Origin: Bacillota bacterium
Lineage (GTDB): Bacteria > Bacillota > Ch66 > Ch109
Assembly (NCBI GenBank): GCA_050952625.1
Contig: JBMNLH010000001.1
Location: 256,001-320,000 of the forward strand
Direction of reading: 5' to 3'
DNA: 64,000 nucleotides
A program made the position numbers and the translations under genes. This document shows, one piece after another, positions 13,735 to 59,903 of this stretch (its first letter is position 1; each line of letters opens with the position of its first letter). Below the pieces are notes generated by a model. That model was given only the letters and a program-made list of their open reading frames with translations. It was not told the DNA's origin and did not search any database.

Positions 13735-13817
13735 GCGGGAGTGGCGGAATTGGCAGACGCACCAGACTTAGGATCTGGCGGGAAACCGTGGGGGTTCAAG
13801 TCCCTTCTCCCGCACCA
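13735..13817 (+). tRNA. tRNA-Leu(TAG)
   Basis: Cloverleaf; anticodon stem ccaga/tctgg with loop cttagga; long variable arm; encoded CCA. Confidence 0.97.
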
Positions 13818-13833
13818 AACTTTAATTAATCGT

Positions 13834-13908
13834 GCGGAAATAGCTCAGTGGTAGAGCATCGCCTTGCCAAGGCGAGGGTCGCGGGTTCGAATCCCGTTTT
13901 CCGCTCCA
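13834..13908 (+). tRNA. tRNA-Gly(GCC)
   Basis: Cloverleaf; loop ttgccaa; GTTCGAATCC; ends TCCA. Confidence 0.97.
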
Positions 13909-27144: not shown

Positions 27145-28542
27145 GTGAATTATTTAGAGGCTTTAGCGTATTTAAACCAGTTGACAAAATTTGGCATCAA
27201 TCTAGGCCTTTCCAGAATGGAAAGGCTTTTAGCCATTTGGGGAAATCCCCATCAACAATTAGCTTGCGTTCATGTCGGAGGGACGAACGGCAAAGGGTCA
27301 GTTTGTGCGATGGTGAGCAGCATTCTCCAGGCCGCCGGCTTCAAGGTGGGTATGTTTACCTCACCCCATCTGGAAAGCTATACTGAACGGTTTCAGATAA
27401 ACGGAGAGGCGATTCCAGAAGCAGAAGTGGCTCAATTAATAACCGAATTGCGACCTCATCTCGAGCAGATGGTGGCAGAAGGATTTGAGCATCCGACTGA
27501 ATTTGAGGTTAACACGGCCCTTGCTTTTCAGTATTTCCACCGAGCCGGGGTAGATCTGGCGGTAATAGAAGTCGGAATGGGTGGCGACTTAGACTCGACC
27601 AACCTGATTACCCCTTCGGTTTCCATCATTACGAATGTTTCACTAGAGCATGAGCGGGTCCTAGGGCACTCCCTTCGGGACATTGCCAGGACCAAAGCCG
27701 GTATAATTAAGCCGAAGGTGCCATTAGTTACGGCGGCCGAAGGAGAGGCTTGGCCCGTGTTACGCCGGGTAGCCAGTCAGTTGGCGGCACCAGTGATCCG
27801 TATACTTCCCGGCCCGCCAGCCCAGAATGAATTTACGCCGTCTTACCGAACTGTTTGGTTAAACTCGATCCAGTCTAGGAATTCTGGGTTACCCCAGCCG
27901 ACTGCGGTCCAGGTGATGAAGGGACAAACCCTTAGTGTGCGGGGGTTACAACGGGAGTATCGGGACCTTTGGATCCCGCTGCTTGGGGAACACCAAAAGA
28001 TAAATGCAACGGTGGCGGTAGCGACGATTGAGTTATTACGAGAACAAGGCTTACCGATCAGCGATGCTGACATTTACCAGGGGCTTCAGGAGACAATCTG
28101 GCCAGGTCGCCTAGAATTGGTAAGCCAAAATCCAATAATCTTACTAGATGGGGCGCACAACCCGGCCGGAGCCCGCTGTCTGGCTAGTTTTTTAGGCGAG
28201 AGTTTTCCAGATCACCGGCTAGTTTTAGTTATCGGAGTGTTAGAGGATAAAAATCGGGACCTAATTGTTCAAGCGATTGCTCCTTTAGCCAATGAGATTA
28301 TCGTTACCGAACCGCCCGGACCCCGATCTGGTAATTGGACCGAGGTTGCCCGACTGGCGGAACATTATACTGATCGCGTGATTATTCAGGATCGACTGCC
28401 CGATGCTCTAGCAAGTGGGGTTGAGTTGGTGCAAAAATACCAGCACAATGGCCAAGCCGCCTTATTGTGTGTGACTGGTTCTCTTTATCTGATCGCGGAG
28501 GCTAGGGGGATATTAAAGTTCCAAGAGAGGGAGAATACTTAA
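27145..28542 (+). CDS. folC: folylpolyglutamate synthase/dihydrofolate synthase
   Basis: GTNGKGS, FTSPHL, DGAHNP. Confidence 0.96.
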   Translation: MNYLEALAYLNQLTKFGINLGLSRMERLLAIWGNPHQQLACVHVGGTNGKGSVCAMVSSILQAAGFKVGMFTSPHLESYTERFQINGEAIPEAEVAQLITELRPHLEQMVAEGFEHPTEFEVNTALAFQYFHRAGVDLAVIEVGMGGDLDSTNLITPSVSIITNVSLEHERVLGHSLRDIARTKAGIIKPKVPLVTAAEGEAWPVLRRVASQLAAPVIRILPGPPAQNEFTPSYRTVWLNSIQSRNSGLPQPTAVQVMKGQTLSVRGLQREYRDLWIPLLGEHQKINATVAVATIELLREQGLPISDADIYQGLQETIWPGRLELVSQNPIILLDGAHNPAGARCLASFLGESFPDHRLVLVIGVLEDKNRDLIVQAIAPLANEIIVTEPPGPRSGNWTEVARLAEHYTDRVIIQDRLPDALASGVELVQKYQHNGQAALLCVTGSLYLIAEARGILKFQERENT

Positions 28543-48111: not shown

Positions 48112-48192
48112 GCAGGTAGGAAATGTCCTACCCCAACCGCCCGATTCGGGTTGCAAAAGCCGTAAGGCTTACCTAGGAATCGGCGAGTCTAG
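48112..48192 (+). ncRNA. ribosomal protein L21 leader
   Basis: aggtagg...ccccaaccgccc...aggtt-like/acct...ggcgagtc directly upstream of rplU. Confidence 0.7.
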
Positions 48193-48208
48193 GGCAGGGA
48201 GGTGCAAA

Positions 48209-54293: not shown

Positions 54294-54878
54294 GTGAATT
54301 TTGACCAATTGCTGCCCATATTAACCCAAAAACTTCCTCCGCGACGTTTAAGCCATTCTCTAGGCGTTGCCGAGACGGCTGTCGGCTTAGCCAAGCAGTA
54401 TGGAGGCAGAGTTGAGACTGCTAGAATGGCTGGCTTGCTGCACGATTATGCCCGAGACCTGCCCTCCGATACTCTGTTAGAGGTAGCCGAACAAGCTGGT
54501 TTAATTACTTGTTCGGTCGAAAGACTGATGCCGGATTTGTTGCACGGGCCAGTGGCGGCTTGGCTTATACCTCGGGAACTGGGAATTAAGGATTCAGAAG
54601 TATTAAGGGCGATCGCTTTGCACACCTTGGGAGCCGAGGAGATGGCTTTGCTGGACAAAATTATCTACATTGCCGATGCTATTGAGCCGGGCCGGAAATA
54701 TCCGGGAGTGGAATACCTGCGGCAGTTAGTCAAGGTTGACCTTGATCAGGCTTTGCTCGCTGGTTATAATCAAACAATTAAATACTGTCTTGACCGAAAT
54801 TACCTGTTACATCCGCGAACGATCTTGGCGCGAAATACACTCGTGCAGATATTATATTCCAGGGTAAGTTCAGACTAA
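54294..54878 (+). CDS. yqeK: YqeK HD-domain Ap4A hydrolase
   Basis: HSLGV, GLLHD, IYIADAIEPGR. Confidence 0.92.
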   Translation: MNFDQLLPILTQKLPPRRLSHSLGVAETAVGLAKQYGGRVETARMAGLLHDYARDLPSDTLLEVAEQAGLITCSVERLMPDLLHGPVAAWLIPRELGIKDSEVLRAIALHTLGAEEMALLDKIIYIADAIEPGRKYPGVEYLRQLVKVDLDQALLAGYNQTIKYCLDRNYLLHPRTILARNTLVQILYSRVSSD

Positions 54879-54946
54879 TTCTGGTTAAAGCCTGGATTTC
54901 GTGGTAAAATATATATAGAAAGTTTAATTTAAAGGAGGAGCCATTA

Positions 54947-55324
54947 TTGAATGATTCCATTCAACTAGTCCAATGGATAGCCGAGGCTGCTGGTGAGCAG
55001 AAGGCTTTTGATCTGGTGACTTTGGATCTGCGTGGGGTATCTTTGATTGCTGATTATTTTGTCATCTGCAGCGGGAGATCAACCGTCCAGGTAAAAGCCA
55101 TCGCCGAACATATTGAGAAATTCCTGGAGGATAAGGGGATCCGGGTTTTGCACAGGGAAGGGAAGCGAGAGGGGCAGTGGCTGCTTTTGGACTATGGCTC
55201 GGTAGTGGTTCACGTGTTTCGGGAAGAAGAACGTCGGTTTTATGGTCTGGAACGCCTGTGGGCTGATGCAAGATTAGTCGAAGATCCTAAAGAGGATAAA
55301 GGGTTGACATTTGTCGGACCGTAA
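54947..55324 (+). CDS. rsfS: ribosome silencing factor
   Basis: ADYFVICSG, WLLLDYG.VVVHVF....R.FY.LE.LW. Confidence 0.95.
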   Translation: MNDSIQLVQWIAEAAGEQKAFDLVTLDLRGVSLIADYFVICSGRSTVQVKAIAEHIEKFLEDKGIRVLHREGKREGQWLLLDYGSVVVHVFREEERRFYGLERLWADARLVEDPKEDKGLTFVGP

Positions 55325-55332
55325 CTTATAAT
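55304..55332 (+). promoter_or_regulatory. consensus sigma-A promoter of the leuS leader
   Basis: TTGACA-N17-TATAAT. Confidence 0.85.
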
Positions 55333-55351
55333 AAACTCCGTCGACAAGATA

Positions 55352-55680
55352 AAAGCCTTGAACCGGAGTAGTAGACTAGTAGGTTTTCAGCAGAGAGCTG
55401 TTGGTGGGTGAAAAACAGTAAGCCGCTAGCCGAAACTCGCCGGGGAGCTGCGTTGGTGAATGATTAATCAACGACGGATATCCACCGTTATGGGATGTTA
55501 AAGCTGGGTAAAACACATAAAGTGGGGCTGTGGCGCAGAGGGAGCGCGCCTCCTTGGCATGGAGGAGGTCACGGGTTCAAGTCCCGTCAGCTCCACCATT
55601 TACTATTTAGTGTTTTATCAATGAGGGTGGTACCGCGGGAATGACAACCTCTCGTCCCTTTGAGGATGAGAGGTTTTTTT
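55352..55680 (+). ncRNA. T-box riboswitch (Leu, specifier CUC) upstream of leuS
   Basis: GA motif, AGUA box, AGAGA bulge, GGUG loop, specifier gaaaCTCg (55436-55438), F-box CCGTTA, T-box AGGGTGGTACCGCG (55624-55637), terminator 55646-55680. Confidence 0.93.
55524..55598 (+). tRNA. tRNA-Ala(GGC), nested in T-box Stem III
   Basis: Acceptor GGGGCTG/CAGCTCC with G3:U70; anticodon stem cctcc/ggagg with loop ttGGCat; GTTCAAGTCC; encoded ACCA. Confidence 0.95.
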
Positions 55681-55706
55681 GATTTTTCCGGAAGGAGAGA
55701 TGCTCA

Positions 55707-58193
55707 ATGAAGGACCGTTATGTTTTTTCAGAAGTGGAAGCATACTGGCAAAAGAAATGGGCTGACGAGGGTTTTTACCAAGTAACGGAAGATCCCAATA
55801 AGCCAAAGTATTATAACCTGGAAATGTTTCCTTATCCATCGGGCAATCTACATATGGGTCATGTGCGCAACTACGCCATTGGTGATGTAGTAGCCCGATT
55901 TAAGACGATGCAAGGGTACAATGTCTTGCACCCAATGGGCTGGGATGCTTTTGGTCTGCCGGCAGAAAACGCGGCGATCAAAAATCAGACTCATCCCTTT
56001 AAATGGACCGCGTCAAATATCGCTAACATGCGGCGGCAGTTAAAAGAAATGGGAATAAGTTATGACTGGGATCGTGAGATTGCTTCCTGTTACCCGGATT
56101 ATTATCGCTGGACCCAGTGGCTGTTTTTGCGGCTATATGAAAAGGGACTGGCATACCGGAAGGAAGCTGCGGTCAACTGGTGCCCTTCCTGTGCGACGGT
56201 TTTAGCTAATGAGCAAGTTATCGATGGGGCCTGCGAACGCTGTGAGAGCATTGTCGAGAAAAAGAAGCTGGAACAGTGGTTTTTTAAGATTACTGACTAC
56301 GCGGAACGGCTGCTGCGGGATTTAGAGACCCTGCCTGGCTGGCCGGATAAAGTTAAGACTATGCAGACGAACTGGATTGGCCGCAGTGAAGGGGTAGAAT
56401 TTAGTTTTACCGTCGCCAATAGTGACCAGAAAATACCGGTCTTTACTACTCGACACGATACCGTTTTTGGCGTGACATATGTGGTCCTAGCTCCGGAGCA
56501 TCCTTTGGTTGAAGAATTAACCAAGGGGACCGCTTATGAAAAGCCGGTTCAGGAATTCATCAAGCGGATGGCACACATGAACGAGATAACCCGGACCTCC
56601 GCGGAATTAGAAAAAGAGGGGATGCTGATCGGGGCCCAGGCGATCAATCCAATGACAGGCGAAGCGGTCCCGATCTTAATTGCCAACTATGTTTTAATGG
56701 AGTATGGAACGGGTGCCGTTATGGGGGTACCGGCCCATGATGAGCGGGACTTTGAGTTTGCCCGTAAGTATGACCTGCCAATTCGCGTCGTGATTCAACC
56801 GGCTGGTCAGGAATTAAGTGTTGAGACAATGGAGCAGGCTTACACCGGCGAAGGAATTATGGTTAATTCTGGACGTTTCAACGGCCTGCCTAACGAGGAA
56901 GGCAAAAAAGCCATTGCTGATGATATGGAAGCGCGAGGAATCGGCAGCCGGCAGATCAATTACCGGCTGCGGGATTGGCTGATTTCGCGGCAGCGTTATT
57001 GGGGAGCACCGATTCCGATTATTTACTGCGAGCAATGTGGTCCAAAGCCAGTCCCGGATCAGGATCTGCCGGTTATCTTACCGACTGATGTGGAGTTCAA
57101 GGGAGGCGGCGGCAATCCGCTGGTGGAGTCGCCGACCTTTGTCGCGACTGTTTGCCCTGAATGTGGGAGCCCGGCGCGTCGGGAAACTGATACCATGGAT
57201 ACCTTTGTCTGTTCATCCTGGTATTTTATGCGGTTTACCAGTCCCCATTCTGATCAAGCACCCTTTGCTTCAGAGCATGTAGATTACTGGATGAATGTGG
57301 ATCAGTACATCGGGGGAGTAGAACACGCCATTTTACACTTGATGTACGCTCGGTTTTTCACTAAAGTTCTGTATGATTTTGGCTTGGTGAAAGTACAGGA
57401 ACCATTTCAAAATCTCCTGACGCAAGGTATGGTGCTTAAGGATGGAGCAAAAATGTCCAAATCTAAAGGCAATGTGGTTAGTCCAGAGGAGATTATCAGC
57501 ACCTATGGGGCAGATACGGCTCGGTTGTTTATCTTGTTTGCTTCACCGCCGGAGAAAGACTTGGAGTGGAGCGATCAGGGGGTTGAAGGCAGTTATCGTT
57601 TTCTTAACCGGGTCTGGCGTCTGGTTGCCGGTTATGCGGATCAAGTGACCGGGATCGTAGTGCCGAAGCCATTCCCAGCCGTGAGTGGGGCGGAACGGGA
57701 ACTAAGACGCTGGACCCACTACGCCCTGCGTAAGGTCACCCAAGATATTGAAACCCGATTTAACTTTAATACCGCCATCAGTGCCATCATGGAACTGGTC
57801 AACGCTCTCTACCATTACCAGGCCCGGGTTGCTCCAGAGCAACAAGACCTGCAAGTGGTGAAAGAGGGCTTGGAATCTTTAATTTTGCTGCTGGCTCCCT
57901 TTACACCGCACATTGCTGAGGAACTGTGGAGTGCGATCGGACATCCGGACAGCGTTCACCTTCAGTCGTGGCCAATCTATGATGAAGCAGCCCTGGTGGA
58001 GGATGAAGTAACGGTGGTCATCCAGGTGAACGGCCGGGTGCGGGAAAAAGTCCAGGTGCCAGCCGGTTTGACGAGCCAAGCCTTGCAAGAGCAGGTGCTG
58101 GCAATGGAACGGGTTAAAAAACTATACCAGGACAAACAGCTTATCAAAGTAGTAGCTATTCCAGATAAACTGGTTAGCCTAGTGATTAAATGA
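55707..58193 (+). CDS. leuS: leucine--tRNA ligase
   Basis: MFPYPSG.LHMGH, KMSKS. Confidence 0.98.
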
Positions 58194-58296: not shown

Positions 58297-58586
58297 TCGT
58301 TTGTTTCATAATTTCATTTGTTGTACTATACTATTATGATGTATTATGATGATACAATCAGGCTATTGATCCTGATAAACATTTTAGCCAACCAGCCTGT
58401 CCTGTTTCGAGGACAGGTTTTTGTTGTCTAGGATTCAAGTGGGAGTCTTGTTATTCGATGAATCAATTAGCTAAATTTTGGAACAATTATTTATGGGATA
58501 CCGACGACTTGCTTTTACCCATTTAGCATGCTAAGATATTACCAATTTTGGGAGTAGGATTATCAGTAAGGCAGGAGGTCTTATGG

Positions 58587-59225
58587 ATGAGGCATTCACC
58601 AGAGGTAGCCCGTTACGAACAAATAGCCCTGGACATAGCGGGTCGAATTGTTCGAAAAGAATATAAGGAAGGCGACAAACTGTTTGGACGGTCTACCCTG
58701 GCGGGTAAATACAATGTCTCGCCAGAAACGGTCCGACGGGCAGTGGCCTTATTGCAGACAACCGGGATAGTGGATCCGCAACCCGGGCGAGGAATAATTA
58801 TTTGTTCCCGTCAGGCAGCAGAAGTCTTCCTGCGGGAATTTGAGAGCCGCCGGGTATTAGAAGACCTACAGGAACGGATTTCTAATTTGCTGGTCGAAAG
58901 AAGAAAGTTGGATCAAATTCTGGAGGAAGAACTTAACCAACTGGTTAACTTTACTTTTAAGAGCAATTCCAGGCTCCAGCAGATTGAAGAAATCGAGGTG
59001 CCCGATGACTCGGAACTAGTGGGGAAAAGCTTGGAATCTCTTCGCTTTCGAACGATTACTGGGGCCACGGTTTTGGCTTTAGAAAGAGGCGGGGAAGAAA
59101 TTTTTTCACCCGACAGCGGAATACCCATTGAGGCTGGGGACCTTTTGGTTTTCGTAGGAACTCCAGAAGCTAAGGAAAGGGTCCGTAAGTTGTTTGGGGA
59201 AAAATCGACAAAAAAGGACGTTTAA
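58587..59225 (+). CDS. GntR wHTH + TrkA_C (RCK_C) transcriptional regulator, BusR-like
   Basis: 'YEQIALDIA.RI', 'GRSTLAGKYNVSPETVRRA'; C-terminal 'TGATVLA..R......SP.....GD.L.FVG'. Confidence 0.88.
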   Translation: MRHSPEVARYEQIALDIAGRIVRKEYKEGDKLFGRSTLAGKYNVSPETVRRAVALLQTTGIVDPQPGRGIIICSRQAAEVFLREFESRRVLEDLQERISNLLVERRKLDQILEEELNQLVNFTFKSNSRLQQIEEIEVPDDSELVGKSLESLRFRTITGATVLALERGGEEIFSPDSGIPIEAGDLLVFVGTPEAKERVRKLFGEKSTKKDV

Positions 59226-59437
59226 TTAGGCCTTAGATGCAGGAATTTTGATGTGTTATGTAGAATCTAAACTATGTAGAACAATTGGTTAAAATCAATC
59301 TTATGTAGATTTAATCTTAGATTTAAATCTTATGTATTTTTAATGGAGCATATCCTTTTAATATTTCTTTTAATATTCAGTATTAGAATTTATAATTGAG
59401 GTTAACCAGGAATTAACCGAATTTCAATTGCATAAAG

Positions 59438-59532
59438 TGCTCCGAGCCGGACTGCCCTAAGGTATGAACTATGGCTGTCGGCCGATAGGGTGCATCGGGA
59501 AACGGATGTGCCTCCCTTTTTGGAAAGGAGCC
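59438..59532 (+). ncRNA. Moco RNA motif riboswitch, Tuco-like (P3-less) variant
   Basis: CTCCGAGC...CCTAAGG...TATGG...AGGG..GAAA..CCTCCC...GGAAAGGAG upstream of a tungstate ABC transporter. Confidence 0.85.
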
Positions 59533-59903
59533 GGTGCTTCATCAAGTCAGAGAAGCCCATCTTTCGGTAAACGTCAATAACTGAAAGCAGGCAGATAATT
59601 CAGTTTGTGTTTTGGTGCAGCACTTTTAACAATTCTCGGCAGTTTAGATGTGGGCTGTAATTGGTAACTTTCCAAAAACGGTCCATTTTATTTTGTCCAA
59701 TTTAAATGGATTTAGTTAGAACGGGGATCGGCCCAGCTTTAATCAGATTGGAGGTGGATAACAAACTTGTAGGCTTGTTAGCCACTTATTACTCAACCCT
59801 TGAGCTAGGGAAGTGTACTATATCAATAGGATAAATTAAAGCGGGTAACTAAGTAATATTTAAAATAATTTTTATGTAGACCAAAATTGTCTAACTAAGG
59901 AGA

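Follow-up and report, generated by a model that had tools for sequence, protein, structure and literature searches.

A tRNA-Ala(GGC) gene nested in the leuS T-box riboswitch of Bacillota and Chloroflexota

A complete alanine tRNA gene was found inside the T-box leader that precedes the leucyl-tRNA synthetase gene (leuS) of a Bacillota bacterium, and the same nesting is kept in well over a hundred species of two bacterial phyla, where it is usually the only match to a tRNA-Ala(GGC) pattern in the genome. The best reading of the data, to which we assign a probability of about 0.8, is that this is a working tRNA gene which uses the promoter of the leader and which, lying upstream of the attenuator, would be made whether or not leuS is read through. 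The arrangement had been pointed out in an earlier note, made from sequence alone; its observation was confirmed in every coordinate, while its interpretation was only partly supported, as detailed below.

Anatomy of the leuS leader

The DNA analysed (the window) is a stretch of 64,000 nucleotides from GenBank assembly GCA_050952625.1 (contig JBMNLH010000001.1, positions 256,001 to 320,000 of the forward strand), part of a 9-contig draft genome. It carries nadD, an HD-domain gene, rsfS and leuS in a row, and the element under study lies between the last two. Its features, in window coordinates, are as follows:
55304..55332 (+): sigma-70-type promoter TTGACA-17-TATAAT of the leader
55349..55506 (+): 5' part of the T-box leader, comprising Stem I with the specifier loop, Stem II, Stem IIA/B and the CCGUUA (F-box) linker; Rfam model positions 1 to about 165
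55436..55438 (+): specifier codon CUC (Leu) within GAAACUCGCC, followed by the purine G
55507..55523 (+): 5' arm of Stem III (GGTAAAACAC, 55507-55516) and its extension (TAAAGT, 55518-55523), which is also the 5' leader of the tRNA; position -1 is U
55524..55598 (+): tRNA-Ala(GGC), 75 nt, with G3:U70, A73 and an encoded CCA (55596-55598)
55599..55619 (+): 3' trailer of the tRNA, which is the 3' arm of Stem III (extension 55602-55609, arm GTGTTTTATC 55610-55619)
55624..55637 (+): T-box sequence AGGGTGGTACCGCG, whose UGGU bulge is complementary to an ACCA 3' end
55646..55682 (+): intrinsic terminator (12-bp stem and U run) that competes with the antiterminator
55707..58193 (+): leuS, leucyl-tRNA synthetase (828 aa), identified as a LeuRS by Pfam

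To examine the leader, it was searched with the Rfam T-box model (RF00230), which matched 55349-55662 on the + strand end to end (model positions 1-219) at 124.2 bits against a cut-off of 93, the best of the 14 T-box matches in the genome. The alignment shows every T-box domain: Stem I with its AGAGA and GGUGNRA motifs, the specifier loop GAA-A-CUC-G (55433-55439), Stem II, Stem IIA/B, CCGUUA, Stem III, the T-box sequence AGGGUGGUACCGCG, and an antiterminator mutually exclusive with the 12-bp terminator (55646-55675), which is followed by a U run. The only large insertion is one of 95 nt in the Stem III loop, and within it ARAGORN called tRNA-Ala(GGC) at 55524-55598, while RF00005 scored 67.2 bits at 55524-55595. 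The Stem III arms are extended by pairing of 55518-55523 with 55602-55609, so that the tRNA sits on the tip of a long helix; the minimum-free-energy fold of 55340-55682 reproduced this extended stem, the cloverleaf and the terminator (z = -3.3). The promoter matches the consensus in 12 of 12 positions and is the only promoter-like site on the + strand in 54800-56000, so that none was found for the tRNA itself. A cognate tRNA-Leu(GAG), ending in A73-CCA and thus matching the UGGU bulge, is encoded elsewhere in the genome.

We also checked, as the earlier note had proposed, whether this is the only tRNA-Ala(GGC) of the genome. It is not: a second copy with a different sequence, its own promoter-like site and a terminator lies on another contig (C6:27461-27536), next to a defence island and on the contig whose tetranucleotide profile is least like that of the main contig (r = 0.93). 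The nested copy need not be essential in this particular genome. A further possibility, that the GCC following the specifier serves as a second codon for the nested tRNA, was dropped, as this triplet is not conserved and GUC, GUU and AUC occur in other leaders.

Conservation and decay of the nesting

To test whether the nesting is a chance event or an assembly artefact, the leader was compared by BLAST with 40 relatives. The same nesting was found in 12 of them, namely in 4 of 5 other genomes of the family and in 8 genomes each belonging to a different family of the phylum; nine of the 12 reached the Rfam T-box cut-off across the tRNA, and the other three scored 81-91 bits. One genome for each of 185,579 prokaryote species was then scanned for a generic tRNA T-arm followed within 20-50 nt by the T-box sequence, a pattern which does not presuppose alanine and which gave at least 120 hits. 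Of the 120 examined, 85 carried an ARAGORN tRNA-Ala(GGC) at the match, and 80 of the 85 had leuS downstream by tblastn; for the other five, only 46, 101, 316, 1126 and 1673 nt of downstream sequence were examined. The remaining 35 held another tRNA, no tRNA, or were cut by the locus end. Sixteen of these 35, the 14 holding another tRNA and 2 of the 21 with no tRNA called, were run through Rfam; none of the tRNAs lay in a T-box, and one locus (Oribacterium) held an ordinary T-box without a tRNA. Over all 96 nested leaders collected, 93 had enough sequence upstream of the tRNA to read the specifier, and of these 92 carried AACUCR while the last carried GAAGCUCG. The partners are therefore always the same, Ala(GGC) inside a Leu(CUC) leader of leuS.

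Record titles name Bacillota lineages (Syntrophomonadaceae, Thermosyntropha, Peptococcaceae, Desulfofundulus, Desulfotruncus, Desulfitispora, Thermacetogeniaceae), Chloroflexota lineages (Ktedonobacteria, Thermomicrobiales, Limnocylindria, Chloroflexia, Anaerolineae, Caldilineae), one Coprothermobacterota MAG and a few MAGs with other labels. At least one of these odd labels is doubtful, since a locus titled 'proteobacterium' (L033) has the same matched sequence as a genome drawn from the phylum of Tengunoibacter. In even samples, the strict pattern hit 52 of 401 genomes of the window's phylum, with 1 hit for the reversed control, and 26 of 151 genomes of the Chloroflexota-type phylum, with 0 control hits; the nesting is also present in finished or isolate genomes, and cultured carriers include Thermosyntropha lipolytica DSM 11003, Desulfofundulus thermosubterraneus DSM 16057, Desulfitispora alkaliphila DSM 22410 and Tengunoibacter tsumagoiensis Uno3. 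These counts are lower bounds. Five pattern-negative members of two positive families were tested, and all five have tRNA-Ala(GGC) upstream of leuS: three inside a T-box above the cut-off, one inside a 52-bit partial T-box match, and one (G068) with no detectable T-box. The idea that pattern-negative relatives lack the nesting was therefore false for 4 of the 5.

Among one representative for each of 34 further families, 8 are nested, two more (G023 and G027) keep the tRNA with a lost or degenerate T-box, and about 7 of 24 others have, by a crude motif test, a leuS T-box sequence without a tRNA. Several genomes show that the two modules can be separated, and the same promoter is kept in relatives, including those with a decayed T-box. 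In G068 the rsfS-leuS spacer keeps the TTGACA-17-TATAAT promoter, 33 nt, the tRNA and a remnant terminator, whereas Stem I, Stem II and the T-box sequence are gone and leuS follows 190 nt later. G001, of the same genus as the window, has the same promoter, a large deletion of Stem I/II, a broken T-box sequence, an intact tRNA and the old terminator; its leuS lies on another short contig of an assembly that is only 78% complete. G023 has promoter, tRNA and terminator only. Conversely G006, from the sister family, has a 154.7-bit leuS T-box with a plain Stem III hairpin and no tRNA.

The history of the element was examined on a quick, unrooted LeuRS tree of 420 N-terminal residues from 98 sequences; of 120 sequences, 19 had been dropped for incomplete coverage or stops and 3 as duplicates, and the sample is enriched for nested cases by the way they were found. 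Nested and non-nested lineages are interspersed, at least 5 changes of the nested state are forced by well-supported branches, and the sequences fall roughly into a Chloroflexota-type group (40 of 42 nested) and a Bacillota-type group. We make no claim from this tree about donor or direction, nor as to whether the element predates the split of the two phyla or moved between them. As repeated independent capture of the same tRNA at the same spot of the same leader is implausible, one old origin followed by several losses or decays is the economical reading.

Selection on the nested tRNA and covariation of Stem III

To investigate whether the nested tRNA is under selection, 47 non-redundant copies out of 94 were aligned. 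G1-G3, U70, C71, C72, A73 and the GGC anticodon never vary, 99.7% of 987 cloverleaf cells pair, and 14 of 21 stem pairs show changes on both sides. G3:U70 is G:U in 47 of 47 copies and never drifts to G:C or A:U. None of 500 shuffles reached the observed values, and sliding the partner columns collapsed pairing to 38-60%. G3:U70 and A73 are the identity elements for AlaRS, and a wobble pair held invariant while its neighbours covary is what selection for AlaRS recognition would produce. The 3' CCA is encoded in 67 of the 85 scan hits and in 32 of the 47 non-redundant copies. Position -1 is U in 35 of 47, the base that bacterial RNase P prefers.

The number of tRNA-Ala(GGC) genes per genome was estimated with a sequence pattern for the 5' half of this tRNA, which recognised 93 of the 96 nested copies and found exactly the two ARAGORN copies in the window's genome. 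It found one match, at the nested site, in 47 of 51 pattern-positive relatives, no match in three, and two matches elsewhere in one; in each of five named genomes it found one match. Although these counts rest on a sequence pattern and partly on incomplete MAGs, they indicate that the nested gene is normally the only one of its kind.

The arms that flank the tRNA are the genuine Stem III, as the 5' arm follows the conserved RAGYG motif and the 3' arm is followed by AA and the T-box sequence, as in ordinary T-boxes (PMC7778990) and in the leader of G006. Since an automatic best-helix search for Stem III is partly circular, the analysis was repeated with arms anchored on those motifs alone, using 44 of the 47 sequences; the 3 left out, including the window's own, lacked the anchor motif. 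Under this anchoring 80.3% of the cells of the six basal pairs form, against 55.9 +/- 2.2% when 3' arms are shuffled among sequences (maximum 63.3% in 1000 shuffles), and several pair types occur at each position. Beyond the base, the helix and the spacers between Stem III and the tRNA vary widely in length and sequence, with 2 to about 20 nt on the 5' side, while the tRNA is always at the tip of Stem III, 20 to 45 nt upstream of the T-box bulge. A T run follows the terminator-like hairpin in 41 of 47 copies, so most of these leaders are transcriptional attenuators in both phyla.

RNA evidence was sought among small-share sequencing runs, in the form of assembled (Logan) contigs of metatranscriptomes (X1 to X4). 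Exact contigs cover 55300-55504 (X1), 55365-55508 (X2) and 55300-55465 (X3) and do not continue into the tRNA; a 95%-alike contig (X4) spans leader, tRNA and T-box (55300-55638), and a depth-269 contig in X1 joins a relative's Stem III region to the 5' half of the tRNA. As contigs cannot show RNA ends, and two of them start upstream of the promoter and may be DNA or read-through transcripts, no conclusion about processing is drawn from them, nor from the absence of cover from 55640 onwards.

Interpretation and comparison with known systems

Taken together, the analysis itself shows a single promoter, a tRNA lying upstream of the attenuator, a leader with all the parts of a T-box switch, and alanine-specific purifying selection on a tRNA that is usually the only pattern match in its genome; everything concerning its behaviour as RNA is inferred from sequence, including the response of the switch to tRNA-Leu, processing of the tRNA, its aminoacylation and its use in translation. 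In this view, every leader transcript, terminated or read through, carries the tRNA and is very probably a pre-tRNA, so that tRNA-Ala(GGC) supply would not depend on the leucine signal and would be drawn constitutively from transcripts that in other bacteria are discarded. This is the first inference of the earlier note, and it held up well under comparison. The tip of Stem III points away from the tRNA-Leu binding core, so the switch should still work. RNase P would cut at 55523/55524, and the 3' end would be made by exonucleases or an endonucleolytic cut in the AU-rich trailer or, where CCA is not encoded (18 of 85 scan hits), by RNase Z plus CCA addition. Processing may be slow, as the 5' leader of the tRNA is paired with its trailer and U-1/G-2 could pair with A73/C74, and leader-RCCA pairing is reported to inhibit RNase P (PMC9433436). 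The termination decision comes only about 80 nt after the tRNA is complete and so probably precedes cleavage. Release would separate Stem I/II from the antiterminator and the leuS mRNA, unless the Stem III helix holds the two pieces together. The second inference of the note, that excision splits the riboswitch and sets a new leuS mRNA 5' end with a regulatory effect, follows logically from excision but remains a hypothesis.

One possible explanation, to which we give somewhat less than even odds, is that the tRNA is a neutral passenger which landed once in a structurally tolerant loop and is retained only because it became the sole tRNA-Ala(GGC) gene, its excision having no meaning for leuS because termination is decided co-transcriptionally before processing. 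This differs from the main reading only on coupling, not on what the element is. The free separation of the two modules in evolution (tRNA without a T-box in G001, G068 and G023, T-box without the tRNA in G006 and, by the motif test, in about 7 others), the changes on the LeuRS tree and the variable spacers agree with it. On the other hand, if any tolerant loop would do, other tRNAs in other T-boxes would be expected, yet none was seen among the 120 hits examined, and retention across two phyla is long for a purely neutral linkage. An active role, in which excision, or docking of the nested tRNA's elbow or ACCA end onto Stem I or the T-box bulge, gates antitermination or sets the stability of the leuS mRNA, appears doubtful on present evidence. 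If true, excision would turn the one-chain riboswitch into a two-piece RNA held only by Stem III, or split it outright, and would define the 5' end and lifetime of the leuS message; LeuRS output would then be coupled to the tRNA-processing capacity of the cell as well as to tRNA-Leu charging, which would explain why this exact pairing of Ala(GGC) with Leu(CUC)-leuS has been kept in both Chloroflexota and Bacillota. The strictly conserved position, the complementarity of the nested ACCA to the UGGU bulge and the control of mRNA stability by cleavage of T-box leaders elsewhere speak in its favour, and the exact contigs from two studies that stop at 55504 and 55508, just before Stem III, are a weak hint only. 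Against it stand the unconserved spacer lengths and G006, which shows that the switch can exist without the tRNA.

It is very unlikely that the element is only a tRNA-like structural domain of the riboswitch, never released or charged. It is embedded in a helix of a structured leader, and sub-threshold hits of the Rfam tmRNA model on two such loci are a reminder that alanine-tRNA-like domains exist inside larger RNAs; however, the invariant GGC anticodon, G3:U70 and A73, the canonical T-loop and the compensatory stem changes are not needed for a mere scaffold, and the element is the only tRNA-Ala(GGC)-like sequence in most carrier genomes and persists as a free-standing gene after T-box decay. 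An assembly artefact or chance juxtaposition, which the draft state of the genome might have suggested, is refuted by the conservation described above.

T-box leaders and tRNA genes are both textbook elements, but no report of a tRNA inside a T-box was found in full-text searches or in passages of PMC7778990, PMC7583486, PMC2494555 and PMC12990946, although these searches did not extend to most subscription journals, to Vitreschak et al. 2008 (RNA 14:717), or to the TBDB tables and supplements of comparative T-box papers, which might list these long leaders. The nesting is not a curiosity of one genome, but the normal home of tRNA-Ala(GGC) in many lineages of two phyla, and in the reading favoured here abundantly made, prematurely terminated leader transcripts double as precursors of an essential RNA. 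It also poses a concrete mechanistic problem, as tRNA excision would have to sever the sensor from the expression platform, and thereby bears on the timing of riboswitch decisions relative to RNA processing, on whether a T-box can work as two pieces, and on how leader cleavage sets mRNA stability. As T-box models lose score on these leaders, three of which fell below the cut-off, annotation pipelines may list the tRNA and miss the switch around it.

Compared with canonical transcriptional T-box leaders (RF00230), such as the leuS leader of G006 or the B. subtilis tyrS, glyQS and leuS leaders, the present leader has Stem I with the CUC specifier, Stem II, IIA/B, the F-box, Stem III flanked by RAGYG and AA, the 14-nt T-box sequence with its UGGU bulge, the competing antiterminator and terminator, and an aaRS gene downstream; it differs in that the Stem III loop, an ordinary hairpin in G006, holds a complete 75-nt tRNA gene of a different amino-acid specificity. 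Lineage-specific insertions of structured RNA in the discriminator domain are known, such as stem Sa of staphylococcal glyS T-boxes (PMC9177973) and the insertions in Stem III and helix A2 which a review calls 'curious ... with unknown structure and function' without mention of a tRNA (PMC7583486). Those insertions are conserved within a lineage but are not genes, whereas the present one is a functional-looking tRNA that spans two phyla. A cut in a T-box leader can yield a new mRNA 5' end and set mRNA stability, as in RNase III cleavage of the S. aureus met leader (PMC7913692); the B. subtilis thrS leader is likewise cleaved. Here the presumed cuts would be made by the tRNA-maturation machinery and would release a useful product. 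Finally, tRNAs that are transcribed as part of a larger RNA and must be excised occur in GOLLD RNA (PMC12990946), and also in the E. coli tRNA-tufB operon and in mitochondrial tRNA punctuation; in the present case the host RNA is a riboswitch that itself senses another tRNA, and the nested tRNA sits inside one of the helices of the switch rather than between genes.

Second tRNA-Ala(GGC) gene and other elements in the genome

A second, free-standing tRNA-Ala(GGC) gene, different in sequence from the nested copy, was found in the genome under study (G000) on contig C6, at positions 27461-27536 (5462-5537 of L179, the locus covering this region). This gene borders a defence island on the opposite strand (L179 5807-13925), which holds a UvrD-type helicase next to an OLD-like TOPRIM/AAA_15 ATPase (a Gabija-like pair), followed by a type III restriction Res helicase and an N6/N4 DNA methylase. 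Contig C6 also displayed the lowest tetranucleotide correlation with the main contig, C1 (0.93).

Within the window, three further RNA features were observed, the second of which sits just at its gathering score:

13735-13908 (+), a tandem of tRNA-Leu(TAG) and tRNA-Gly(GCC) genes, 16 nt apart
48125-48200 (+), a ribosomal protein L21 leader (RF00559), 36.8 against a gathering score of 36
59428-59546 (+), a molybdenum cofactor (Moco) riboswitch, 65.9 bits against a cut-off of 36, downstream of a GntR/TrkA_C regulator gene (58548-59225)

Variation among nested leaders and their leuS genes

In five loci from Anaerolineae-type records (L072, L073, L076, L129 and L133), a further tRNA gene lies immediately upstream of the T-box leader, about 200-260 nt upstream of the nested tRNA. 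By eye, its anticodon loop reads CGC, which is suggestive of tRNA-Ala(CGC); the leader may therefore be part of a tRNA operon in these cases. Two other nested leaders, L112 (from a record with a Coprothermobacterota title) and L134, have a very short Stem I, in which the specifier lies close to the 5' end and no distal AGAGA/GGUG region is visible. In each of the two, only 7-8 nt separate the CCA from the AA that precedes the T-box sequence.

The distance to leuS also varied. In the Chloroflexota loci L026, L039, L041, L047, L052, L056 and others, leuS begins 650-1500 nt downstream of the T-box, indicating that at least one other ORF lies between the leader and leuS in these lineages. On the LeuRS tree, two genomes of the window's phylum that lack the nested tRNA, G024 (locus L172) and G014 (locus L173), have LeuRS N-terminal regions that group with Chloroflexota-type sequences (97% SH-aLRT). 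One possible explanation is a transfer of leuS.

Matches to other RNA families

In G006, the sister-family genome, a group II intron domain (RF01998, 57.6 bits; L016 1238-1322) was found about 180 nt from a tRNA-Ala(CGC) gene. The tmRNA model of Rfam yielded sub-threshold hits, against a cut-off of 47 bits, on two of the loci: L142 2543-2602 (31.6 bits) and L011 1572-1646 (43.6 bits). The former lies at the 5'-cut edge of its locus, where no tRNA is called by ARAGORN, while the latter lies on the nested tRNA-Ala, presumably because tmRNA has an alanine-tRNA-like domain.
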